A stretch of 64,000 bases of DNA from the NCBI GenBank assembly GCA_963663275.1, contig OY760183.1:1632001-1696000 (forward strand), written 5' to 3'. The notes beneath the pieces are model-generated. The model had not been told where the DNA came from. It made no database searches and was given only the letters and a program-made list of their open reading frames with translations. This DNA comes from Chloroflexota bacterium. Lineage in GTDB: Bacteria > Chloroflexota > UBA11872 > VXOZ01. Below are positions 11,931 through 62,886 of the stretch, piece after piece. A program made the position numbers and the translations under genes. Each line of letters begins with the position of its first letter. Within the stretch, counting starts at the first letter, position 1.

Positions 11931-12911
11931 GTGAAGAGCGGCGCGTACACCATCGAGCCGCTCACGCCGGCGCCTGAACACGTGGGCGGCATCCGCGAAG
12001 AGCTTAACCTGCTCACCTACGGCCCCAGCGACATCCTGCTGGCCAAAGACGGCGGCGCGATCGCGGGCGCGGTGCGCCTGGCCCTGCGGGAGGACGCCCG
12101 CCGCCGCCACGGCCTCATTGCCGATCTGACCGCGCATGAAGACTATGCGCGCCAGGGGCTTGAGGATGCGCTGATCGCCGCCGCCGAAGAGCGCCTGAAG
12201 TCCAGAGGCGTGACGAAGATCGACGCCGTCGTGCGCGACGGCGAGGGCGCTACCGTGCCCTTCTACGAACGCGGCTACTGGGCCGCCCGCAAGATGGTGC
12301 TGCTCACGTGGGATCTGAACTCCCTGGACGACCTGGAAACGAGCCCGGCCTTCACCATCGAAGAGCAACCCGCTCCCGAGCCGGGGTTTCTCACCGACTT
12401 CGCGCTGAACAGCTACCAACCGTACTGGCGCTGGTGGAAAGAGTACAAGGAAGATACGCGCTGGCATCGCGTGGAATACCCGGCCGAACCGGAAGCGCCG
12501 CCCAGCGCGGCGCTGGCCCAGGAGATGCGCGCCCGCGTGGAAGCGCGCGCCGCCGCCTTTGGCACAACCGCCCCGCAGACGCTCTTTGCCGCGCGCATCG
12601 ACGGCGAGGCGGTCGCGCTCTGCGACGCCAAAGCCGCGGCGGACGACATTACGTTCGATTGGGGCTTGCTGGTGCGCCGCGACTTCGGCGGACGCCGCAT
12701 CGGCTCGGCGCTGCTGGGGCACGCGCTCCATTGGCTCAAGGCGCAAGGACTGGCGTCGGCGCGCATCGTTACTACATCGGGATTGGACGACTACGATCCT
12801 ACCGTGTATCTCTACGCCGCCGCCCACGGCGGCGTGATTCGCGCCGAATACCTGAATCTGGTGAAGCGCAGGCTGTACGGCGGGTCCGCCGGTGACCCGG
12901 AGCGAGGCTAG
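11931..12911 (+). CDS. Tandem GNAT-family acetyltransferase
   Basis: Two acetyl-CoA-binding motifs (AHEDYARQGLEDALI and VRRDFGGRRIGSALL) plus FYE-RGY. Confidence 0.8.
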   Translation: MKSGAYTIEPLTPAPEHVGGIREELNLLTYGPSDILLAKDGGAIAGAVRLALREDARRRHGLIADLTAHEDYARQGLEDALIAAAEERLKSRGVTKIDAVVRDGEGATVPFYERGYWAARKMVLLTWDLNSLDDLETSPAFTIEEQPAPEPGFLTDFALNSYQPYWRWWKEYKEDTRWHRVEYPAEPEAPPSAALAQEMRARVEARAAAFGTTAPQTLFAARIDGEAVALCDAKAAADDITFDWGLLVRRDFGGRRIGSALLGHALHWLKAQGLASARIVTTSGLDDYDPTVYLYAAAHGGVIRAEYLNLVKRRLYGGSAGDPERG

Positions 12912-13999: not shown

Positions 14000-14131
14000 G
14001 TAGGGCGCACGGAATCGGGGATAACACGATGTAGTGGGGCACGACACGTCGTGCCCCACGCCAAAAGCGAAGTAGGGCGCACGGGATCAGGAATAACACG
14101 GTAGGGGCACGACACGTCGTGCCCCACGCCA
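14000..14131. repeat. Tandem duplication of a ~70-bp unit containing a GGGGCACGACACGTCGTGCCCC palindrome
   Basis: Two units starting GTAGGGCGCACGG at 14000 and 14072. Confidence 0.85.
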
Positions 14132-16341: not shown

Positions 16342-16716
16342 CTCCTGTCCCCTCTCCCTCTGGGAGAGGGCTAGGGTGAGGGCGAATCATCAGGATACCC
16401 GTAGCGCGGGGGCTTGTCCCCCGCATCTTGGGCAATACGGTCAACACCGTACCGGACAAGGCGCACAATGCCGTTCCAGATGGGTTTGGCGGACACCTGA
16501 AGAAACGCTCTTGTCTCCTTTCCCTCGGCTGACAAGGGTAGGTAATATAATCGGCATACCGTGTCATTCCGAACGGAGCGCAGCGGAGAGAGGAATCTAA
16601 GGCATAGCCTCGGAAGTTCAGCATTCCAGATTCCTCGCTCCGCTCGGAATGACATTTGCATACTCCTGTCCCCTCTCCCATTGGGAGAGGGTTAGGGTGA
16701 GGGCGAATCATCAGGA
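16342..16716. repeat. Composite repeat: two 54-bp direct repeats (CCCTCTCCC/GGGAGAGGG hairpin family) flanking GTAG and GTCATTCC palindromes
   Basis: Direct repeats at 16342-16395 and 16663-16716; GTAGCGCGGGGGCTTGTCCCCCG at 16401; GTCATTCC doublet at 16563-16653. Confidence 0.88.
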
Positions 16717-21007: not shown

Positions 21008-21442
21008 GTCATTCCGAGCGCAGCGAGGAATCTAAAGACGCTGACTTTGCAGGGCTGCGTTTTAGATTCCTCACTTCGCTGCGCTCCGTTCGGAATGACA
21101 CGTGAAGTCGATTATAGAGTACATATCCCTGTCAGCGGGAGGCGGGGGACAAGCCCCCGCGCTACGGCGTTACCAAACCCGTCCTACTTTCATCGCTCCG
21201 GTAGCGCAGGTTTGTAACCTGCGCCGGCCTGTGCGGTCATGACGGCGCGGTTGGTGAGGCGGAGGCGGGGGACAAGCCCCCGCGCTACGAGGTCAGCAAC
21301 TACGCCTTTCTCTTATCCCTCCGGTAGCGCAGGTTTGTGATCTGCGCCGGTCTGTGCGGTGAGGCCGGGGCAAGCGGTGAGCCGGAGGCGGGGGACAAGC
21401 CCCCGCGCTACGCATTAGATTCCTCGCTGCGCTCGGAATGAC
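21008..21442. repeat. BIME-like mosaic: GTCATTCC doublet, then alternating GTAG palindromes with ~123-bp period
   Basis: GTCATTCC element 21008-21099; type A at 21143, 21266, 21389; type B at ~21200, ~21323; half element 21417-21442. Confidence 0.9.
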
Positions 21443-28346: not shown

Positions 28347-28482
28347 ACGACAAAGGCGTAGGTTCACGACAGAGGTGTAGGGGCACGACAAAGGAGTGGG
28401 TGCCCGATAAAGGTGTAGAGGCACGACAGAGTTGTAGGTACGCGACAAAGGTGTAGGGGCACGACATGTCGTGCCCCTACAC
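28347..28482. repeat. Six degenerate 19-bp tandem units ending in a full GTAG palindrome
   Basis: Consensus ACGACAAAGGTGTAGGGGC x6, then GTGTAGGGGCACGACATGTCGTGCCCCTACAC. Confidence 0.88.
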
Positions 28483-28579: not shown

Positions 28580-30325
28580 CTAGGCGATTTCCGTGATGGA
28601 GACGCTATCGAACCAGGCCGTGCCTGTCGTGCCCGGCAGGGCGGAGAGCGCCACCCGGCAGCAGTAGACATAATCCGGCAAGACGGGTGTGGCGACTGCA
28701 AGGCGCGTCCAGTCCTGGCCGGCTGCGCCGCGTTCGCTGCCGCCAACCGGTTCTGAGCGCGCGCGGCCAAGGAAGCCCATGTCGCCGTTCCATTCCAGCG
28801 AGACCGTCATCCCTCCGCCGCGCAGGTCTTTCGTGCGCACCCAGGCTTCGAGCGCGTAGCGTTTGCCGGCGGTGGCCGCGAGCAGTTTGCCGTCGTCATT
28901 CAGCACGCGGCGGATTGCGGGCACGATTGGCTCCGCGCCGTCGCTGTGCCAGCGGATGCTTTCCTGGCTCGTGCGCGCCACCGCCCCGTCGCGGGCGTAC
29001 TGCGGGCGCGGCAGCACCCAGCGCGCCGCGCCTTCTTCCATGCCTGCCACCACCGTGCCATGCGGCGGCAGGTCGGGATACGGCAGTTGCGGGCTGGCGG
29101 CGGACAATTCCGGCAGGGCCGCCGCCGGTTTGCGCAACGTCAGCGTGTCGAAGCAATTGCCGTCGGTGTCGATGGCGCGCACCCGGCATTCGTCCGGCGC
29201 AACCGACGTGAGTAGCAGGTGGTTGACGGGCTTTGCCAACGCCGAAACGGGATGCAGGTGGTCCCAGAGTTCGCTGGGCGCCAGGCTCATGTCGTAGCCG
29301 CCGCCGCCGGAGACGAAGTAGACCACGCCGATTTGGCTGTCGTACTCTCCGCCCCGCAGCGGATGGAAGCGCTCGTAGATGGTGGCGTGGGCGGTGTACA
29401 CGATGTCCACGCCGTAGCGTTCGAACAAGGGGCAGAGCGCGCGGGTGGCCGGTATCTCGCAATTGTTCGAACAGTACGGCGGATGATGGAAGACGACGAA
29501 TTTCCAGCGGGCGTTCTGAAAAGTCTTGAGGTCGTGTTCCAGCCAGTGCCATTGCTCCGAGCCGGGCCGGTAGTCCAAGTTGCTGTTGAGCACGGTGAAG
29601 TGCGCCGCGCCGTAGTTGAAGGAATACCAGTAGTGGGGTTCCGGGTAGTTGAAGTAGCGGAAGTAGCCCTCGTTGGGGGAGTCGTGATTGCCCATGGCGG
29701 CGAACCACGGCGTGTAAGGCAGAAGATTCGACGTGCACGCGAAGAAATCGCTGAAGCGCGCAATCTCGTCCTGGGCGTGGTCGCCGGCCCCGACGCAGAT
29801 GTCCGCCCGGTAGGCGCGGGCAAGGCCGGCGTTGCGGCGGTGGACGTGGTTGACACGCAGGCTGTCGCCGTAGGTGGCGAACGAGAAGGGCGAGTTTGCG
29901 CGAACGGCGGTGCGAAAGCTGGCGGGGGCTGAGGTGACTGTTTCTTTTCCCAACGGTGAATGGGCATGATTTTGGTTGGCAGGAGAGAAGACCCCCTCAC
30001 CCCGGCCCTCTCCCCAGGGAGAGGGAGAGAAAGAGGAAGGGGGAGAGGGGGAAGTCTGCGGGATTGCGGAGCAAGAGGAAACCCGGTAGAAGTAGTCTTG
30101 TTCGGCCTCGAGGCCGGTGATGCGGACGGCGTGGACTGTGCGCGGTTCGGGGTCTTCGCTGCGGCAGGGATAGGTCGGTTCCGGCCGGCCAGCGTAGGCG
30201 CTCCAGCCCAGGCGGGCGCTGCGTTCGTACTCCACGACAGAGGTGGCGGGTTCGTCGGTCTGCCACATGATGGTGATCGCGTCGTGGGCCACGTTTTGCA
30301 GATACGGGCCGGCGGTGATTTTCAT
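28580..30325 (-). CDS. Metallophosphoesterase (purple acid phosphatase-like; FN3 plus catalytic plus C-terminal carbohydrate-binding-like domain) with in-frame repeat insertion
   Basis: GPYLQ..TIMWQTD, YFYRV..SFRTA, YGDS, AGD, GNHD, HHPPY, YER, VSGGGG; ATG 30325 lies 5 nt after the kelch gene stop. Confidence 0.87.
   Translation of the reverse strand: MKITAGPYLQNVAHDAITIMWQTDEPATSVVEYERSARLGWSAYAGRPEPTYPCRSEDPEPRTVHAVRITGLEAEQDYFYRVSSCSAIPQTSPSPPSSFSPSPWGEGRGEGVFSPANQNHAHSPLGKETVTSAPASFRTAVRANSPFSFATYGDSLRVNHVHRRNAGLARAYRADICVGAGDHAQDEIARFSDFFACTSNLLPYTPWFAAMGNHDSPNEGYFRYFNYPEPHYWYSFNYGAAHFTVLNSNLDYRPGSEQWHWLEHDLKTFQNARWKFVVFHHPPYCSNNCEIPATRALCPLFERYGVDIVYTAHATIYERFHPLRGGEYDSQIGVVYFVSGGGGYDMSLAPSELWDHLHPVSALAKPVNHLLLTSVAPDECRVRAIDTDGNCFDTLTLRKPAAALPELSAASPQLPYPDLPPHGTVVAGMEEGAARWVLPRPQYARDGAVARTSQESIRWHSDGAEPIVPAIRRVLNDDGKLLAATAGKRYALEAWVRTKDLRGGGMTVSLEWNGDMGFLGRARSEPVGGSERGAAGQDWTRLAVATPVLPDYVYCCRVALSALPGTTGTAWFDSVSITEIA
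29993..30025. repeat. CCCTCACCC..CCCTCTCCC-nnn-GGGAGAGGG hairpin inside a coding sequence
   Basis: CCCCTCACCCCGGCCCTCTCCCCAGGGAGAGGG, read as SPSPWGEGRGEG on the minus strand. Confidence 0.9.
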
Positions 30326-31469: not shown

Positions 31470-32990
31470 GTGATTATCTACACGGATCACGATGAGGAAC
31501 GCCTCTACCCGGAGGAAGAGAAGATCGCCGACGAGCGGGCGGAGTTCGAACGCGACCGCGCCCGCATCATCCACAGCGCCGCTTTCCGGCGGTTGCAGGG
31601 CAAGACGCAGGTCTTCGGCGTGCGCTACGGCGACTTCTTTCGCACGCGGCTCACGCATTCGCTGGAGGTGGCGCAGATCGGCAAGGCGCTGGCGTTGCGG
31701 TTAGGGGCGGATCCGACCTTGGTCGAGGCGATTTGCCTGGCGCACGACATCGGCCATCCGCCGTTCGGCCACCACGGGGAACAGGCACTGCGGTCGCGCA
31801 TGGCGGCGCTCGGCAATTTCGAGGCGAACGCCCAGAATCTGCGGGTGCTGACGCAGCTTGAGGTGAAGTCGGACCGGTACGCCGGGCTCAATCTGACGCG
31901 GGGGGCGCTGGACGGACTGCTGAAGTATAAGGCGCTGTATGAAATTCCAAGTGGCGCGGGCGCGCTTGGCCAAGCGAACCCTCACCCTAACCCTCTCCCT
32001 CAGGGAGAGGGGATTCGTGGGAACGCGCCCAGCCCTCATCTCGATCCTCTCCCTCAGGGAGAGGGGACAAAGGGAGGGAGCGGGGACGCGCACAGTCGAA
32101 CGACAGGTGAGGATACTCGCCTTGGCTCTCTCCCTCAGGGTGAGGGGATTCAAGGGAACACACTCAATCCTCTTCTTGGTCATCTCTCTGAGAGAGAGGG
32201 GGCTGTTGCAGGGAACGAGATGAAGGCGTGCTACGCCGAGGATGCGCCGTTGCTTGCGTGGATTTGCGAGAGAGGCTCGTTGGAGGAGCGGTCGTTCGAG
32301 TGCCAAATCATGGATTGGGCCGACGACGTGGCGTATTCGGCGCACGATCTGGAAGACGGCATCAACGTGGGCATGATCAGCGTGCAGAACCTGCGGCGTC
32401 CGGCCAACCAGGAGGCGGTCGCGCGGCGCGTGCAGGCGGGCGCGGCGGAGCGGGGGCGCTCGTGGTCGGAGGCGGACGTGGTGCGAGAACTCGACTGGCT
32501 GGCGGCGCGCCTGAGCGAGTTGGAAGGCCTGCCGACGCCGCGCCACGCCCGGGCGGCATTGAAGGACTTGACCTCGCGCCTGATCAACGAATTCGTGCGC
32601 TGCGCTCAAGGCGCGCCCCGGCTGGGTTGGACGGAAGGCCTATCGGAACGCTACCGCTACGGCTTGATGGTGCCCGAAGCGCAGGAACGGCGCTGCGAGG
32701 TGCTGAAGCAGGTGGCGTTTGTGCTGGTGTTCGCGGAGCCGCGCGTGACGACGCTGGCGCATCGCGCGCACCACATGGTGGAGCGGCTGTTCGCGGTATT
32801 CCAGGCGGAGGAGAACGCGGCGATGTATCCCTTTGAGTTTCAAGACCAGTTTACGGGCGCGCGCAACGGCGCGGCGCGCATGAGGGTGGCCTGCGACTAC
32901 ATCGCCTCTATGACGGATTTCCAGGCCGAACGCGCCTACCAGCGCCTTTTCGTGCCCGGTTACGAGAGCATTCTGGATCCGTTAGTGTAG
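31470..32990 (+). CDS. dgt: dNTP triphosphohydrolase (dGTPase, HD domain) with in-frame repeat insertion
   Basis: FERDRARIIHSAAFRRLQGKTQV, RTRLTHSLEVAQI, AHDIGHPPFGH, FEANAQ, ADDVAYSAHDLEDG, DYIASMTD. Confidence 0.95.
   Translation: MIIYTDHDEERLYPEEEKIADERAEFERDRARIIHSAAFRRLQGKTQVFGVRYGDFFRTRLTHSLEVAQIGKALALRLGADPTLVEAICLAHDIGHPPFGHHGEQALRSRMAALGNFEANAQNLRVLTQLEVKSDRYAGLNLTRGALDGLLKYKALYEIPSGAGALGQANPHPNPLPQGEGIRGNAPSPHLDPLPQGEGTKGGSGDAHSRTTGEDTRLGSLPQGEGIQGNTLNPLLGHLSEREGAVAGNEMKACYAEDAPLLAWICERGSLEERSFECQIMDWADDVAYSAHDLEDGINVGMISVQNLRRPANQEAVARRVQAGAAERGRSWSEADVVRELDWLAARLSELEGLPTPRHARAALKDLTSRLINEFVRCAQGAPRLGWTEGLSERYRYGLMVPEAQERRCEVLKQVAFVLVFAEPRVTTLAHRAHHMVERLFAVFQAEENAAMYPFEFQDQFTGARNGAARMRVACDYIASMTDFQAERAYQRLFVPGYESILDPLV
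31979..32202. repeat. Four CCCTCTCCC/GGGAGAGGG hairpin copies inside dgt
   Basis: Copies at 31979-32012, 32033-32066, ~32116-32147 and ~32168-32202, encoding PHPNPLPQGEG, PHLDPLPQGEG, RLGSLPQGEG, LGHLSEREG. Confidence 0.9.
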
Positions 32991-33048
32991 ATTGCCGCCG
33001 CCCAACGGCAGGCCGTTCGGCCCTCAAATCCGGCATGTGTCAATCCGG

Positions 33049-33202
33049 CGTCAGGTGTAGGGGCACGACATGTCGTGCCCCTACACCTGACGTCCGGCCC
33101 CTTTACAACGTTGTTGAATTGCGTAGGGGCGGTTCGCGAACCGTCCCCACGGCGCACGGTGAATCACAATCCCGGTAGGGGCGGTTCGCGAACCGCCCCT
33201 AC
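33049..33202. repeat. GTAG-type palindromes between convergent genes
   Basis: 44-bp perfect palindrome 33049-33092; GTAGGGGCGGTTCGCGAACCGCCCCTAC-type copies at 33123 and 33175. Confidence 0.9.
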
Positions 33203-34304: not shown

Positions 34305-34450
34305 GGCTGTGTGCTCCTCCTGGCGCTGTTGCCTGTTTCTATGCGTGTCATCTGAATGTCATCCGCTGACGAGCGGCGCTCCGCGGCGGGCGGGCGACGC
34401 GCTGCCTCTTTTTCCCTCTCCCCGAGGAGAGCCGACAGGGCTATGTGAGT

Positions 34451-34542
34451 GTCATTCCGAGCGGAGCGCAGCGGAGAGAGGAATCTAGAGCAAGGTCCCG
34501 CAATTCCAGCATCTCTAGATTCCTCGCTCCGCTCGGAATGAC
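34451..34542. repeat. GTCATTCC-family palindromic doublet
   Basis: GTCATTCCGAGCGGAGCGCAGCGGAGAGAGGAATCT...AGATTCCTCGCTCCGCTCGGAATGAC. Confidence 0.9.
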
Positions 34543-34610
34543 ACGTAGAGTTGGATGGAAAGTGCGTACCCCTGTCGGCCTGGGAATAGGGAACGCATGT
34601 AGTCCGTCTT

Positions 34611-34769
34611 TGCGAATTCCCCCTCACCCTAACCCTCTCCCCCGGGGAGAGGGGATGAAGGCTGCTTTCTTTGCGAGTTTCCCCTCACCCTAGCCCTCTC
34701 CCCGGGGAGAGGGAATGGAAACCGTCGCCTTTGGGAGTTCCCCCTCACCCTAACCCTCTCCCTCGGGAG
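34611..34769. repeat. Three tandem ~60-bp units of the CCCTCACCCTAACCCTCTCCC hairpin; third copy interrupted
   Basis: Units at ~34620, 34681, 34741; the missing right arm of the third copy (AGGGAGAGGGG) is at 35947-35957. Confidence 0.88.
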
Positions 34770-34786
34770 GCCTTTGCATAACTCTG

Positions 34787-35797
34787 TCATTCCGGCGAAA
34801 GCCGGAAGGTGGATTCACATTTCAAGTGCAACACCTGGTTGATGAATACTTCGGCTGGCGTTTGGAAGTCAAGACACTTGCGCGGGGTGTGGTTGTAGGC
34901 GTGGACCAGTTGCGCAAAGCGTTGTTGGCTCACCTGTGCCAGGTCGGTCTTGCGCGGCAGCCGGCGCCGCAGGCGGCCGATGGCGTTCTCGATGCCCCCT
35001 TTCTGCCAGGGCGAGTGGGTATCGCAGAAGAAGGTTTGGATGCCCAAGTCATGGAGGCGGTAATGCTGTGCGAACTCCGTGCCATTGTCGAACGTGACGG
35101 TCTGGCTGCACGCTGGGGGCAGCGCGGCGAACAGGTCGTGCAGGATAGTGGCGATCGGCGCTGCCGCCTTGCCGGGCGGTCGCGCGGCCAGCAACAGGCG
35201 CGAGTGGCGCTCGTGCAGGGTCAAGACTGCTTGACCGTAGGTGCGAAAGAGCATCAGGTCCGCCTCCCAGTGGCCGGGCGTTTGGCGGTCTGCCGCCGCC
35301 TGGGGCCGTTCTGCCAGCGGTCGGCGCTGGGCAATGAACGAGGCCGGACTGCCGCCCTTTCGCCCGCGCCAGCCCCGTTTGGACTTGGCGCGCGGCAGGT
35401 AATGCCGCCAGTTACCGTCCTTCGTGCGCGCCTGCTGCCCGTAGATGAAGCGATAGATGGTCTCGTGAGAGACGACCGGCGCGCCGTTCTCCCGCGCCAA
35501 ACGTCCGGATACCTGCTCCGGCGACCAACAATCCCGCAAGTATCCCAACACCACCTCCCGCAACTCGGCATCCCGCTCCAGCTTGCTGCCGCGCCAGCAC
35601 CGCGCCCACGCCTGATCATCGGCATACTTTGGCTCATAGCCTGCCGATTGCGATCCATTTCGTTTCACCTCCCGCGAAATCGTCGATGGCGCGCGACCCA
35701 GAGTTGCAGCGATTTGCCGGTGCGAGGTTCTCGCGGTGAGAAGTCGGGCAATTTCACACCGCTCTTCAATGGTAAGTTGTGTGTATTGTTTTCCCAT
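34787..35797 (-). CDS. IS30-family DDE transposase
   Basis: N-terminal HTH (IAATLGRAPSTISREVKRN), WSPEQ, SHETIY, WEADL, TFDNGTEF, PWQKGGIEN, PRKCL. Confidence 0.96.
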   Translation of the reverse strand: MGKQYTQLTIEERCEIARLLTARTSHRQIAATLGRAPSTISREVKRNGSQSAGYEPKYADDQAWARCWRGSKLERDAELREVVLGYLRDCWSPEQVSGRLARENGAPVVSHETIYRFIYGQQARTKDGNWRHYLPRAKSKRGWRGRKGGSPASFIAQRRPLAERPQAAADRQTPGHWEADLMLFRTYGQAVLTLHERHSRLLLAARPPGKAAAPIATILHDLFAALPPACSQTVTFDNGTEFAQHYRLHDLGIQTFFCDTHSPWQKGGIENAIGRLRRRLPRKTDLAQVSQQRFAQLVHAYNHTPRKCLDFQTPAEVFINQVLHLKCESTFRLSPE

Positions 35798-35841
35798 GGC
35801 AACACCTTAGCAAAGTGTTGCACTTCGTTTGTGAGTCTAGG
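34808..35841 (-). mobile_element. IS30-family insertion sequence (1034 bp, 3-bp target duplication GAA)
   Basis: Imperfect 27-bp IRs sharing TCACA..AAGTGCAACAC at 34808-34834 and 35815-35841; GAA at 34805-34807 and 35842-35844. Confidence 0.9.
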
Positions 35842-35982
35842 GAATCCAGAGCGGTGTCACAACTAAATAAGGCATACCGTCAAGCCATTTCATCCCAATC
35901 CCAGCCTTCCCCCTCAATGGGCAAGGGGTTATGCAAAGGTCTCCCCAGGGAGAGGGGACTAAGAGCTACGAATGCTCCAACG

Positions 35983-41530: not shown

Positions 41531-41669
41531 ACGTGAAGTCGGATATTGATTGCATACCTCAATCAGGTCTCCTGGGCGAGTGGGACGGGGTTAGGGGGGG
41601 ACTCCGGCGTTGGGGTGAAAGAGCGTGATGCGTGACTGTAATGATTGCGTTCCGTCAGGAGCGCGCGGT

Positions 41670-41845
41670 GCGCAGGTTACAAACCTACGCTACCGGAGGG
41701 AAGAGGCGAGTGCGCGCGTGCGCAGGTTACAAACCTGCGCTACCGGAGGGGAAGGGGCGAGTGCGCGCGCGCAGGTTGCAAACCTGCGCTACCGGAGGGC
41801 AAGCGGCGAGTACGGTGCGCGCAGGTTGCAAACCTGCGCTACCGG
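41670..41845. repeat. Four tandem ~50-bp units, each carrying a GTAG-type palindrome
   Basis: GCGCAGGTTRCAAACCTGCGCTACCGG at 41670, 41720, 41769, 41819, with near-identical linkers. Confidence 0.9.
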
Positions 41846-41889
41846 ACGGAGGGCGGTATGGACGTTTCGCGGCGGCGGGCGGGGCAAGG

Positions 41890-44913: not shown

Positions 44914-44948
44914 CCCCTCACCCTAACCCTCTCCCACGGGGAGAGGGG
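44914..44948. repeat. CCCTCACCCTAACCCTCTCCC hairpin immediately upstream of the efp RBS
   Basis: CCCCTCACCCTAACCCTCTCCCACGGGGAGAGGGG. Confidence 0.88.
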
Positions 44949-50218: not shown

Positions 50219-50325
50219 TTGTATCGATGGGTAGCGTAGGTTTACAACCTGCGCCTGATGGGTAGCGTAGGTTTGCAACCTGCGCGGTTTTGTTGGCGCT
50301 GCCGCTTGGCTCTACCCGTCTATGT
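50219..50325. repeat. GTAG-REP pair related to the 12925 element
   Basis: TTGTATCGATGGGTAGCGTAGGTTTACAACCTGCG, a second copy at ~50257, and distal CTACCCGTCTATG. Confidence 0.75.
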
Positions 50326-59805: not shown

Positions 59806-62472
59806 TCAAAGCCTGAAATCTGAGCGCCTAGACTGGCGCAGAAGCCTCTTTAACTCTCGGGTTTCCTTTTGCAGCGCTTCAATTTGCGTTGACTGCGCAA
59901 TACTACGGTCTTCTATAGCTTCCGCAGGTAGGCCTAGTTTCTCCTTAGCCAAAGCTCGGTTGGCGTAGTATTGGGGTGGGACCTTTCCCGTACAGAGTCG
60001 GATGGCATTGTCAAAGTCCTCTAACGCTTTCTCGAATTCCTGCAAGTTGCTATTGCAGACACCGCGGCTGTAGAACCAAACAGCGGGGCGGTTGTGAAGA
60101 CTGTTTAGAAGAGAGTTGCTAAACCGGTCAAGAGCAATTGCCATGCTAAAGTCTTCTACGGCCAGCCTGTAATCGCCTAAGCTGCGAAAGGATGCACCTC
60201 GTCTGTAGTAAGCTTCATCGTCCTCCGGATCAATTGCAAGTGCTTTTGAAAGGTCAGAAATTGCTTCCTTATGTTTTCCCAAGTGCCGGTACGAGTCACC
60301 GCGACTAAAATAGTAGTAGGCTCTCTCAGGCTCCAATTCAATAGCCTTGTCGTAGTCTCCAATAGCCAACTGGTACTTCTGGTTCTTTTTGTACACCCAA
60401 CCTCGTTGTGCGTGATATCGAACCACACTTGGGTCTAGTTCAATTGCCTTACTGTAGTGGCCAACACTACTTTCAAATTTCTCATACCTGTCGAAAAGGT
60501 CACCACATGCTTCATACACTTTGGCAAAGTCGGGACGAATTTCTAGAGCCTTCTTGAAGTCGGTGAGGGCTCGCTCAGGAATGTCGACCTCAGGGCTACT
60601 GTAAAGTGTGCCCCGGCAGAGCAGGTAATCAGCATTACTTGGATCCAGTTCAATTGCAGAGTTGAAGTCTGAAAGCGCCTCATCGTATTGATTTAGCTTC
60701 CTGTAACAGTTACCTCGACGGATGTAGTAGCTGGCATTATCTGGCTCTAACTCAACTGCCCTGGTGTAATCCTTTTGGGCAGCATTGACATGATCTTCAT
60801 CACTAAAGGGGTCACCATTCTCAAAGTGAAGGTCTCCGCGGCCCGCGTATGCCCATGCACTATCCGGCTCGAGCTCAACTATCAAGTCATGAAGGTCTTT
60901 GGCTCGATTGAAACATTGCTCAGACAAGTAGAGCGCAGCGGCCAGCTTGCAGTCTTCAACGGCAGTCTTGACTTTACCTAGATCCTTGTAAGTCAGGCCA
61001 CGGGCCGTATAGTAATCGGCATACTTCGGCCGCAGCTCTATCGCTCTATCGAAGTCGGCAATGGCTTTACGGTGCTTTCCTTGTTCATTGTAGAAGTAGC
61101 CCCGTTGTGCATAGGTCACCGCACATGTAGGAAGTCGAGAAACAAGCCTGTCGTGAAGGCTCAAGGCTTCTCGAGGCTTAAGGTCGTCTACATAGTCACG
61201 AATTCTTCTCAGGTATCCCTCGGCGTTCTCTGGATCTAGTTCTACTGCTTTGCAGCAGTCCGCGAGAGCTTCGTCCAGTCTCTCTAACCTCAAATAGCAG
61301 TAGCCCCGCTGTGCATAGGTCACCGCACATGTAGGCAGTCGAGAAACAAGCCTGTCGTGAAAACTCAAGGCTTCTCGAGGCTTAAGGTCGTCTACATAGT
61401 CACGAATTCTTCTCAGGTATTTCTGGGCGTTCTCTGGATCTAGTTCTACTGCTTTGCAGCAGTCCGCGAGAGCTTCGTCCGTTCTCTCTAACCTCAAATA
61501 GAAGTCGCCTCGATCGGAGTAGTGTTGGGCATTTTCTGGTTGTAGTTCAATTGCCCTATCGTAAAGCACCAACGCTTTTTCGGGAGGGATGATGTCCATG
61601 GTCCACCAAAGGGAATGTGGGAATTTCCCTGGATGGAAATCGACAGCTTTCAGGCAGTCTGCCAACGCTCTTTCAGCATTATTGACCCGTAGGTGAGCGT
61701 ACCCGCGGTGATGGTAGCATTCGCTTTCTTCGGGCAGTAGTTCCACGGCCTTGTCAAAGTCCTGAAGGGCTCTTTCATAGCACTTTAATCTCGTAAGGAG
61801 AATGCCGCGTTGCAAATAGTACAACCCGTTGTCTGGCTGGAGCGCGATACAGGTGCTATAGCTTTCAACGGCTTTCTCATACTCCGACTTCCCATATTGG
61901 GTGCCACGTAAACCAAAGAGTACGTCGCCACGTTCAGAAAAGAAGCTCCCAAGTGCGACGTAGTGTGACACTTCGGTTGGTTCGAGGCTGATTGCCTTAC
62001 CGAAGTCTGCCAAGTCTGCGTCTGCGTCTGCGTCAAAGCGAATCTTCCGCGCATGGTAGTTTCCGCGTGCGATATATGCTGCGGCGTTACCGGGATCCAG
62101 TTCAATGGCTCTGTCGTAATTCGGTAAGGGTATGTAGAGCTTTCCTAAGTTCTCGAATAGGACTCCACGGGCGATATAGACATCAGGGCAATCTGGCTGA
62201 AGCTCAGCTACTCTTTGATAGTCCGCCAATGCTTCTTCTGTCTTGCCCAAGTCTCTAAAGCAGTTGCCACGGGCCAAATGAGCACAAGTGTGTCCTGGCT
62301 CGATTCGAATTGATTTCGAGAATTGCCGGATGGCTTCATCCAGTTGACCTTTTTTGAAGAGTTCGGCGCCAGCCTCGTAGTGAGACTTGGCATCTCCTGT
62401 ACAATCAGGCACCACACTTTCCCCCAATCTGCGAAAACAAAATGCACCACTACCGGTTAGATAGTAGTGCAC
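59806..62472 (-). CDS. Large TPR-repeat protein (low GC, probably horizontally acquired)
   Basis: Roughly 20 TPR units (Y..RG..Y..L.....A..D...A..L.P); start uncertain (GTG 62472 or ~62415). Confidence 0.9.
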   Translation of the reverse strand: MHYYLTGSGAFCFRRLGESVVPDCTGDAKSHYEAGAELFKKGQLDEAIRQFSKSIRIEPGHTCAHLARGNCFRDLGKTEEALADYQRVAELQPDCPDVYIARGVLFENLGKLYIPLPNYDRAIELDPGNAAAYIARGNYHARKIRFDADADADLADFGKAISLEPTEVSHYVALGSFFSERGDVLFGLRGTQYGKSEYEKAVESYSTCIALQPDNGLYYLQRGILLTRLKCYERALQDFDKAVELLPEESECYHHRGYAHLRVNNAERALADCLKAVDFHPGKFPHSLWWTMDIIPPEKALVLYDRAIELQPENAQHYSDRGDFYLRLERTDEALADCCKAVELDPENAQKYLRRIRDYVDDLKPREALSFHDRLVSRLPTCAVTYAQRGYCYLRLERLDEALADCCKAVELDPENAEGYLRRIRDYVDDLKPREALSLHDRLVSRLPTCAVTYAQRGYFYNEQGKHRKAIADFDRAIELRPKYADYYTARGLTYKDLGKVKTAVEDCKLAAALYLSEQCFNRAKDLHDLIVELEPDSAWAYAGRGDLHFENGDPFSDEDHVNAAQKDYTRAVELEPDNASYYIRRGNCYRKLNQYDEALSDFNSAIELDPSNADYLLCRGTLYSSPEVDIPERALTDFKKALEIRPDFAKVYEACGDLFDRYEKFESSVGHYSKAIELDPSVVRYHAQRGWVYKKNQKYQLAIGDYDKAIELEPERAYYYFSRGDSYRHLGKHKEAISDLSKALAIDPEDDEAYYRRGASFRSLGDYRLAVEDFSMAIALDRFSNSLLNSLHNRPAVWFYSRGVCNSNLQEFEKALEDFDNAIRLCTGKVPPQYYANRALAKEKLGLPAEAIEDRSIAQSTQIEALQKETRELKRLLRQSRRSDFRL
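61095..61501. repeat. 204-bp (68-aa) near-identical tandem duplication inside the TPR gene
   Basis: 61095-61298 versus 61299-61501, offset exactly 204 nt. Confidence 0.92.
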
Positions 62473-62776: not shown

Positions 62777-62886
62777 CCCCTCACCCTAGCCCTCTCCCCA
62801 GGGAGAGGGAATAGGACGTGGCCGTATTTCCCTCCCCAGGGAGAGGGAACAAGACGCGGCTGCGATTCCAGTGCCAGGGAGAGGGA
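62777..62886. repeat. CCCTCTCCC/GGGAGAGGG hairpin with two degenerate downstream copies
   Basis: CCCCTCACCCTAGCCCTCTCCCCAGGGAGAGGGAA, then CCAGGGAGAGGGAAC twice. Confidence 0.82.

Follow-up and report, generated by a model that had tools for sequence, protein, structure and literature searches.

To our knowledge, the BoxC/PIT/TMECO repeats, which have been known since the 1990s, have no accepted function or mode of spread, and we know of no transposase or mobility mechanism for them. In their motif, a C-rich arm is separated by a loop from a G-rich arm, and a 3-nt loop joins this to a second G-rich arm; the motif may fold into a hairpin, an intrastrand triplex, or a G-quadruplex. The TMECO pattern is published as 5'-CCCTCNCCC N3-6 GGGNGAGGG N3 GGGNGAGGG-3' (Holder et al. 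2015, PMC4666352). It was counted in 262 proteobacterial genomes in the main text of that paper, and its members in E. coli K-12 are described there as "always located intergenically". In the sections of the paper available to us, TMECO sites are tied to local deletions, slippage, and rearrangement, and earlier work is cited as having detected neither promoter nor terminator activity, nor a triplex footprint in vivo. The same sequence has been treated as a G-quadruplex-hairpin-duplex switch (bioRxiv 10.1101/032615).

Repeats that contribute peptides to host proteins are described in other families. Rickettsia palindromic elements (RPEs) are specific to Rickettsia, about 150 bp in length, and bring with them a conserved ORF peptide of their own (Ogata et al. 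2000, as summarized in the part of the review PMC10969869 available to us). According to the same part of the review, they are dispersed palindromic repeats that stand in frame in unrelated metabolic genes and add a peptide to an apparently functional host protein. Intragenic ERIC, Corynebacterium Cod-2 repeats, and cyanobacterial MITEs within ORFs are also known from the available portions of PMC10969869 and PMC2267715.

We analyzed a window of 64 kb, that is, the whole stretch of DNA under study, from a Chloroflexota genome. The dgt gene, its insert, and the repeat units in the insert are as follows.

31470..32990, plus strand: dgt, 506 amino acids with a GTG start, an intact gene for a dGTPase-family dNTP triphosphohydrolase carrying the insert (list of open reading frames)
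31941..32222, plus strand: insert region of dgt, 94 codons from E158 to M251 (protein and DNA alignments with orthologues, pLDDT)
31976..32029, plus strand: unit A1, 54 nt, read as NPHPNPLPQGEGIRGNAP (nhmmer E=2e-11)
31979-32011, G-rich strand being the template strand: BoxC/TMECO type A motif in A1 (dgt copy 1), a perfect copy (exact pattern match)
32030..32083, plus strand: unit A2, 54 nt, read as SPHLDPLPQGEGTKGGSG, with the hairpin intact and the third arm decayed (nhmmer E=6e-6)
32084..32110, plus strand: spacer between the unit pairs, 27 nt, completing the 135-nt period (comparison at a 135-nt shift)
32111..32164, plus strand: unit B1, 54 nt, a decayed A1 copy, read as ...LGSLPQGEGIQGNT (nhmmer E=0.003)
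32165..32218, plus strand: unit B2, 54 nt, a strongly decayed A2 copy, read as ...LLGHLSEREGAVAGN

The preliminary description of this DNA placed about 94 codons between LLKY and K..Y.ED, and the alignments agree: the insert lies between LLKYKALY and KACYAED of the dgt product. We confirmed that the observation is real, and it is a new example of an already known use of dispersed repeats as protein loops. We consider it likely (a probability of roughly 0.75) that the repeat entered a loop of dgt, was duplicated in frame by slippage or recombination, and is now decaying as a tolerated disordered loop.

On sequence grounds, we assign the dgt repeat to the BoxC/PIT/TMECO intrastrand-triplex motif family. 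Over its 33 nt, copy 1 (31979-32011) does not differ from E. coli K-12 TMECO no. 17 (PMC4666352 Table 1), and the A1 hairpin folds at -18.4 kcal/mol. The repeat was initially described as a palindrome; the hairpin is present, but with its third, G-rich arm the element is more than a palindrome and matches the triplex (also G-quadruplex) motif. When the first loop was relaxed to 2-8 nt, eight exact TMECO matches were found in the window, against none in 100 shuffles. Five of the eight, including dgt copy 1, fit the strict pattern with a 3-nt loop, and the full pattern is absent in dgt copies 2-4. The hairpin core, with up to three mismatches, occurs at eight sites (15 strand-matches) against 0.02 expected from shuffles, and four of these sites, 31992, 32046, 32127, and 32181, are in dgt. 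A blastn query with 34617-34660 matched 5409 of 5426 E. coli genomes, in a median of 17 places each, and also 657 plasmid records. The K-12 copy adjoining fabI (L025 4202-4242) corresponds to TMECO no. 9.

Six of the eight exact copies lie between ORFs with family matches, and the other two lie inside the frames of dgt and of a metallophosphoesterase (MPE) gene. The intergenic loci are listed below.

16350..16382, plus strand: TMECO copy between amidohydrolase and MR_MLE genes (profile and pattern match)
16671..16703, plus strand: TMECO copy 41 nt upstream of the MR_MLE gene (profile and pattern match)
34604..34767, minus strand: tandem array with a period of about 60 nt and 2.7 copies (TRF; pattern matches at 34621 and 34682)
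44915..44947, minus strand: TMECO copy (profile and pattern match)
62778..62809, minus strand: TMECO copy adjoining a tRNA gene (profile and pattern match)

All of the intergenic copies reported previously were recovered, at 16350, 16671, 34621, 34682, 34742, 44915, and 62778. The hairpin of the third array copy is interrupted by an IS, and repeated right-arm fragments follow the copy at 62778..62809 up to about 62880. The array at 34604-34767 is missing from the orthologous spacer of relatives. The window holds eight exact motifs in 64 kb, against two hairpin-core copies, both in MPE, in about 245 kb of the 12 closest relatives. Family loci vary among close relatives in the number of dgt units (four, three, or none), the length of the MPE segment, and the presence of the array. 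No Rfam family matched any repeat copy, the sole match in the window being a tRNA, and the RNA folding energies of the copies were not significantly below those of dinucleotide shuffles (z -0.5 to -1.9). Copies were also seen in L013 and L015; Pfam gave no support for coding sequence embedding in the frames that span them, and one of them sits upstream of the domains matched in an MR_MLE frame, at the edge of that frame. A rule by which intragenic periods are multiples of three (54, 135, and 27) and intergenic ones are not was dropped, the intergenic array having a period of about 60. A separate repeat family with a GTAG head also occurs in the window, for example at 33040-33200.

The window copies share with BoxC/PIT/TMECO the sequence pattern CCCTCNCCC-loop-GGGNGAGGG-N3-GGGNGAGGG, both second-loop types, A (TTA) and B (CCG), the occurrence of tandem or paired copies, and sites tied to local rearrangement. 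They differ in three respects. The first loop is 2 nt in three of the eight exact copies, including that in MPE, against the published 3-6; a CTA second loop, which is absent from the K-12 table, occurs in three of eight; and known K-12 members are intergenic, whereas window copies are in frame inside two Chloroflexota genes. Since the dgt and MPE copies lie inside homologue-supported frames, intergenic location describes the known members and not the sequence family. The likeness to REP/BIME (RAYT) elements and MITEs is that of short GC-rich hairpins that are mostly intergenic and targets for IS insertion; an IS30-like element lies in the hairpin of one window copy. In REP/RAYT elements, the palindrome bears a GTAG-type head and the genome encodes a RAYT. 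In contrast, the aligned window copies are without a GTAG head. Terminal inverted repeats and target-site duplications, which mark MITEs, were not seen at the dgt insert, where junctions are blurred by divergence. The likeness to RPEs is in behavior only: two unrelated genes of the window, dgt and MPE, carry in-frame inserts with the ORF preserved. However, the window element is 33-56 nt long, common to several phyla, and amplified in tandem inside a gene. Because of its size and host phylum, we do not file it as an RPE. ERIC, Cod-2, and cyanobacterial MITEs are likewise small repeats read as peptides in coding sequences, some in different frames, but they belong to other sequence families, and the available portions of PMC10969869 and PMC2267715 report no tandem amplification to an enzyme loop of about 90 amino acids.

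The second in-frame copy lies two genes upstream of dgt, at a site outside those listed in the preliminary description.

28580..30325, minus strand: MPE, 581 amino acids (protein P0121), with a purple-acid-phosphatase N domain and a Metallophos domain (Pfam)
29994..30025, minus strand: BoxC/TMECO type B copy in the MPE coding sequence, with a CCG second loop and the G-rich strand being sense, read as SPSPWGEGRGEG (pattern match)

The MPE insert shows the same process as dgt in a second gene. It is lacking in nine of 11 aligned orthologous loci and present in L007 and L008. The corresponding segment has 63-124 residues in seven of 33 homologues, against 24-25 in the other 26; among the lengthened homologues, the motif peptide is duplicated in one and 9-residue arrays occur in several. 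The L007 and L008 genes carry 27-nt tandem repeats. In the MPE tree, the insert label needs three changes, at least two of which are forced by well-supported branches, and the carriers are not one clade. Possible histories are a single gain followed by two losses, several gains, or an exchange of alleles.

In the whole gene, the sequences of the window, L007, and L008 have no longer identical stretch than the 33-nt MPE motif; the second longest has 26 nt. The third-codon positions of the motif are identical in all three at 11 of 12 sites, against 48% (213/442) in identical-residue columns elsewhere, with a binomial tail of about 0.002 for at least 11 of 12, and the flanks of the insert are hypervariable. 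These observations argue for an insert that acts as a nucleic acid, its structure being kept for slowing transcription, replication, or translation, or for seeding variation, and that is not a neutral passenger. The perfect state of dgt copy 1 and the G-quadruplex/hairpin switch proposed for the same sequence (bioRxiv 10.1101/032615) point in the same direction. However, dgt copies 2-4 are decaying, the motif peptide is degraded in P0124 and the core is lost in P0127, and the absence of promoter or terminator activity and of a triplex footprint, as given in the available sections of PMC4666352, does not favor such a role. Alternatively, the core may be conserved because it was acquired recently or repeatedly, or through gene conversion. 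We regard a nucleic-acid role as unlikely.

The dgt product belongs to the dGTPase-type dNTP triphosphohydrolases of the HD superfamily, as indicated by its domains, family score, residues, and fold. It carries the Pfam HD and HD_assoc domains and scores 321 bits against TIGR01353 (cut-off 152). NF002829, its best-scoring NCBIfam equivalog model, gives 376.8, slightly below the cut-off of 385, and the match is cut in two by the insert. The predicted fold resembles 7lwz, 9p8w, and 2dqb (Foldseek), with TM-scores of 0.79-0.83 against 7lwz, normalized to the target. One of these nearest structures, 9p8w, is an anti-phage dGTPase. As initially described, the frame and all HD motifs are intact: the frame is open over 506 codons, and all 66 columns invariant across 66 aligned homologues are kept, including H63, H92, D93, H96, D285, H292, and D293. 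The dgt core is under purifying selection, with a dN/dS of about 0.1; the values on the window branch (0.09-0.12 over 418 codons) are rough because dS is near saturation (0.6-1.4).

The insert is predicted to be a disordered loop. In the structure model, which had been suggested as a check on loop placement, residues 169-249 have a pLDDT below 50 and are almost without secondary structure, while 366 of 506 residues are above 90 and form the core. The insert codons are rich in G, P, L, and E. The type A motif itself is free of stop codons in three of its six reading frames. The only listed homologue that shares the insert is P0001 (97% identity, on a separate contig of 1.7 kb, compared as protein), from which the window differs at six of 76 insert residues and nine of 412 others (Fisher p=0.018); the insert thus evolves about four times faster than the rest of the protein. 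The loop is probably translated, tolerated by the enzyme, and neutral.

A loop co-opted as protein, either as a flexible regulatory or interaction segment or, if the dGTPase is defensive, as a decoy against phage inhibitors, appears to us a little less probable again than a nucleic-acid role. The insert is in frame in two sequences differing at 2-3% of residues, the product matches the PADLOC dGTPase model (E=3e-123), and 9p8w is among the nearest structures. However, the loop is predicted to be disordered, its rate is about four times that of the core, its copy number varies, and none of 12 syntenic orthologues has it. The score with the NCBIfam anti-phage model is also below its cut-off (342 against 400), and dgt lies in a conserved core neighborhood, the gene order MPE-kelch-dgt-GFO being kept among relatives.

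The insert is present in the window lineage and absent from relatives. In all 12 syntenic Chloroflexota orthologous loci (79-85% identity), dgt is a gene of 1257 nt and 419 codons without the insert; the window gene is longer by a net 261 nt (87 codons), within the gap of about 80-90 amino acids that the preliminary description had expected. The distance between the anchors is 10-21 residues in 119 of 120 listed homologues, 82 in P0001, and 100 in the window protein. A protein search with the insert only (residues 160-253) matched P0001 alone; the motif peptide is too short for matches to other proteins to reach significance. The claim that this segment is normally a short loop holds for close orthologues but not for the nearest solved dGTPase structure, which has about 68 residues between the blocks aligned around the insert site; the site therefore varies in length across the dGTPase family. 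No clear target-site duplication, terminal inverted repeat, or clean junction was found at the dgt insert, where the junctions are blurred because the ancestral 21 nt have diverged past recognition.

The units within the insert retain a duplication hierarchy. Two 54-nt pairs about 135 nt apart had been noted, and we found a direct repeat of 135 nt (31981-32082 against 32116-32217) at 74% identity. Four hairpin sites were found, as claimed, but copy 4 (B2) had no match with the nhmmer profile, which was built from eight window copies, two of them genic (dgt copy 1 and the MPE copy). It was seen only as a 3-mismatch minus-strand match to the hairpin core, and was recognized from its register in the 135-nt repeat and its 37/54 identity to A2. 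TRF did not detect the 54-nt or 135-nt periodicity of dgt because the units are too diverged, while a repeat search and in-register comparison detected both. Over 54 nt, the identities are 40 for A1-B1, 37 for A2-B2, 33 for A1-A2, 30 for A2-B1, 28 for B1-B2, and 28 for A1-B2. Since A1-B1 and A2-B2 are the most alike, the data fit one insertion followed by in-frame duplications of 54 nt and then 135 nt, and not the four insertions proposed previously. Independent arrival of four repeats at one hot spot, although the family also forms an intergenic tandem array (34604-34767) and the MPE carriers are not one clade, so that a site could have been hit repeatedly, is very improbable given this pair pattern and the exact 54-nt and 135-nt spacing of units that share frame and orientation.

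P0001 has three units, one 54-nt unit fewer than the window. Its sequence, NPHPN|PLPQGEGTRGGSG, fuses the 5' part of A1 with the 3' part of A2; one 54-nt period was lost between identical hairpin cores, and the absent period is A2. Repeats can mislead assemblers and the database matches did not include a protein identical to the 506-aa product, but an assembly artefact or a decaying pseudogene is the least credible explanation of all, since P0001 has the same insert with the same decayed B1 and B2 on another contig, the frame is open, dN/dS is about 0.1, and all invariant residues are kept.

In the explanation that we consider likely, the insert arose as a single entry with subsequent amplification. 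One unit of BoxC/PIT/TMECO, about 54 nt long, would have landed in a short, length-tolerant loop of dgt on the lineage leading to the source genome, which is rich in copies of the family. The structure-prone repeat may then have undergone local slippage or unequal recombination, giving first a 54-nt duplication and then a 135-nt duplication of the pair. The gene being under purifying selection, survivors would have been limited to stop-free changes in multiples of three. The outcome would be 87 extra codons forming a disordered surface loop that the enzyme tolerates, with later copies decaying and the loop evolving faster than the core. The mode of entry and slippage as the cause of amplification are what we infer; the hierarchy of units and the intact frame and catalytic residues are observed. 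The preliminary description invoked a selfish repeat that invaded, amplified, and is now diverging. Entry, amplification, and decay of a dispersed repeat agree with our reading, but we do not retain the term "selfish" because no mobility mechanism is known.

The present results place BoxC/TMECO in frame inside genes and in Chloroflexota; the papers covered describe intergenic copies only. We found no report of the family inside coding sequences or in Chloroflexota in the literature searched, which comprised openly available papers and the main text of PMC4666352. In two conserved genes, closely related Chloroflexota differ cleanly in whether the site is empty or filled, and there are copy-number variants in between; BoxC entry, slippage, and protein cost thereby become directly comparable. 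The dgt case suggests how a conserved enzyme may gain about 90 residues of predicted disorder from a structure-prone repeat and remain intact. Genes such as dgt may be under-annotated, because the insert splits the family-model match and leaves the score just under the equivalog cut-off.

More tentatively, and with the odds against it, BoxC/TMECO may be an element that crosses phyla, with nearly identical copies in Proteobacteria and Chloroflexota, and that can enter coding sequences and seed fast-growing disordered segments through structure-driven instability, with selection, conversion, or re-insertion keeping its core unchanged as DNA. If this is true, the alleles at the dgt and MPE sites, empty, filled, expanded, contracted, and decayed, form a natural series that could reveal the insertion and amplification mechanism of a 30-year-old orphan repeat. 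BoxC/TMECO would then no longer be just an inert curiosity between enterobacterial genes.

The gene dgt (31470..32990, plus strand) encodes a 506-aa product with Pfam HD and HD_assoc domains. This product scored above the cut-off of the dGTP triphosphohydrolase model TIGR01353 (321 bits vs 152) and matched the PADLOC dGTPase model (E=3e-123); it may serve in housekeeping or in defence. With NF002829, the best equivalog model, it reached 376.8 bits against a cut-off of 385, and the match was broken into two by an insert of 94 codons (31941-32222) that separates LLKYKALY from KACYAED. Eight sites in the window (G+C 64.9%) matched the hairpin core with 3 or fewer mismatches, against 0.02 expected, and four of them were located within dgt. 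The four in-frame hairpin copies of the preliminary description were thus confirmed. A profile built from eight window copies detected copies 1-3 (E=2e-11, 6e-6, and 0.003, respectively) and did not detect copy 4, which is therefore placed by register only.

By its sequence, this repeat belongs to a family first named the BoxC repeat of E. coli and since renamed twice, as the PIT element and as TMECO (Holder et al. 2015, PMC4666352). According to the main text of that study, a C-rich arm is followed by a loop and a G-rich arm, and a loop of 3 nt leads to a second G-rich arm; the whole folds into an intrastrand triplex in vitro. It also reports 3610 occurrences in 262 proteobacterial genomes, K-12 copies that are always intergenic, and loci that vary unusually from strain to strain. 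A role as a G-quadruplex/hairpin switch has also been proposed for this sequence (Doluca et al., bioRxiv 10.1101/032615). When a first loop of 2-8 nt was allowed, the published pattern had 8 matches in the window and 0 in 100 shuffles. K-12 TMECO no. 17 is identical to dgt copy 1 over 33 nt, and the K-12 copy beside fabI corresponds to TMECO no. 9. The earlier reading as a hairpin was correct but incomplete, as the element has a third, G-rich arm, that of a triplex motif. Only its location and the phylum of its host depart from the published account. No report of BoxC/PIT/TMECO inside a coding sequence or in Chloroflexota was found in the freely readable papers searched, including the main text of PMC4666352. 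In its behaviour, the window element resembles the palindromic elements of Rickettsia and further small repeats within genes, as far as the accessible descriptions extend. It falls outside those families.

A blastn search with the copy at 34617-34660 matched 5409 of 5426 complete E. coli genomes (median, 17 places each) and 657 plasmid records, mainly from Rhizobium, Klebsiella, Sinorhizobium, and Azospirillum. Against proteobacterial records (E. coli, Klebsiella, Azospirillum, Rhizobium, and Sinorhizobium), the Chloroflexota MAG copies of the ~40-nt repeat had 84-95% identity; such conservation across phyla may reflect transfer or constraint. TMECO was also present in L013 and L015, the two Dehalococcoidia loci looked at; the first and second C-rich arms of the L013 copy (11982-12048) enclose another small hairpin, CCCCGTA...TACGGGG. 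In ~245 kb from 12 close relatives, TMECO was seen only twice, both times in the metallophosphoesterase gene. We conclude from this that the window lineage has gained copies.

The dgt orthologue search of genome contigs returned 22 loci, 12 of which (L001-L012) are from Chloroflexota MAGs with 79-85% identity. The order metallophosphoesterase-kelch-dgt-GFO oxidoreductase is kept in these 12 loci, indicating that dgt is a core gene of the clade. In all 12, dgt is 1257 nt long and insert-free, a net difference of 261 nt (87 codons). Sixteen full-length orthologues (81-86% identity) read KAIHGSRPGLRKSCYAED at the insert site. Between the anchors, the window protein has 100 residues and P0001 82, compared with 10-21 in the other 119 of the best 120 homologues. 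The ~90-aa loop is absent from the syntenic orthologues, as expected previously. However, a short loop is not the rule for the whole family: HMMER left query residues 159-273 unaligned opposite residues 172-240 of 7lwz, and the site thus varies in length. In a concatenated four-protein tree, the window joined L005-L008 with 98/98 support, and its own terminal branch was long. The insert therefore arose along this branch. P0001, a protein listed from a different 1.7-kb contig (97% identity), carries the insert, including decayed units, minus exactly 18 residues.

Regarding composition, G+C is 65% in the window and 58-60% in its closest relatives among L001-L012 (L011, 63%), and dgt GC3 is 0.85 in the window and 0.68-0.78 in six relatives checked. 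Of the five rows in its clade of the four-protein tree, the window also has the longest terminal branch.

The two halves of the insert form a 135-nt direct repeat with 74% identity. We divided the insert into 54-nt units, A1 (31976), A2 (32030), a 27-nt spacer, B1 (32111), and B2 (32165); BoxC is listed at 50-56 bp, which is close, and the intergenic TMECO array has a period of ~60 nt. Identities were highest for A1-B1 (40/54) and A2-B2 (37/54) and lower for A1-A2 (33), A2-B1 (30), A1-B2 (28), and B1-B2 (28). Four separate insertions, as previously proposed, do not fit this pattern. It fits one unit and two duplications: a single unit would have been doubled by a 54-nt duplication, the two units would have drifted apart somewhat, and the pair with its spacer would then have been duplicated by 135 nt. 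In P0001, the 5' part of A1 is fused to the 3' part of A2, a junction that is the expected product of one period lost between identical hairpin cores.

The reading frame is open, and the HD motifs are intact, as initially described; the window protein retained 66/66 invariant columns of a 66-sequence alignment. dN/dS on the window branch was 0.09-0.12 (418 gap-free codons), with dS near saturation. An AlphaFold2 model from the same alignment (mean pLDDT 83.4; 366/506 residues at 90 or above) matched the dGTPase structures 7lwz, 9p8w, and 2dqb. The insert, rich in G, P, L, and E, is predicted to be disordered, with pLDDT <50 and almost no secondary structure at residues 169-249. Between the window protein and P0001, 6 of 76 aligned insert residues differed vs 9 of 412 elsewhere (Fisher p=0.018), one of the nine being a GTG start read as V. 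Overall, the loop has the appearance of a surface segment under weak constraint that a working enzyme tolerates, and we infer that it is translated.

A second in-frame copy was located two genes upstream of dgt, in a metallophosphoesterase gene (28580-30325, minus strand) with purple-acid-phosphatase N and Metallophos domains. It lies between FYRVSS and SFRTAV in the opposite orientation to the dgt copies and reads SPSPWGEGRGEG. The motif copies in this gene are as follows.

Window, 29994-30025: motif copy in the minus-strand metallophosphoesterase gene
L007, 6391-6425: motif copy in the orthologous gene
L008, 6136-6174: motif copy in the orthologous gene

The insert was absent from 9 of 11 aligned orthologous loci (L011, with a split match, was omitted); in L007 and L008 the core is the same and the insert is longer. 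Across 33 database homologues, the window protein among them, residues between the anchors numbered 24-25 in 26 and 63-124 in 7. Of these seven long inserts, one carries two copies of the motif peptide and several contain 9-residue serial repeats, seen at the DNA level as 27-nt tandem repeats in L008 and L007; the core is degraded in one and missing from another. The carriers do not group together in the tree, where L007 pairs with L006, which has no insert (support 100/100), and the label has to change three times. The longest identical run shared by the window, L007, and L008 across the whole gene is the 33-nt motif, with 11/12 third-codon positions conserved vs 48% elsewhere (binomial tail ~0.002); the surrounding insert is hypervariable. 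Selection on the DNA itself, gene conversion, or repeated acquisition (re-insertion) may account for this constancy.

Other repeats were also noted. An IS30-like element (34768-35941; HTH_38 and rve; transposase ORF 34787-35797, minus strand), whose terminal inverted repeats are close to GGCCTTTGCATAAC, splits the hairpin of the third copy in the intergenic array into 34742-34767 and 35942-35960; the spacer holding this array is ~1680 nt in the window and ~180 nt in relatives. A ~96-nt palindromic element based on GTCATTCCGAGCGGAGCG (34449-34544) represents another dispersed family, a fragment of which (~16625-16660) adjoins the TMECO copy at 16671. REP-type palindromes with a GTAG head lie just downstream of dgt, for example at 33040-33200. 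Further small repeat families occur at 14000-14131, 28347-28466, 41661-41850, 50226-50285, and 21134-21412, some as tandem arrays (periods 19/38, 50, 68, and 123 nt). The TPR-repeat ORF 59806-62472 (minus strand) contains a 204-nt tandem duplication (61091-61509; 2.1 copies, 94% identity).

The empty, filled, and variable sites at dgt and the metallophosphoesterase gene may be used to examine how this orphan repeat gets into DNA and makes it unstable.
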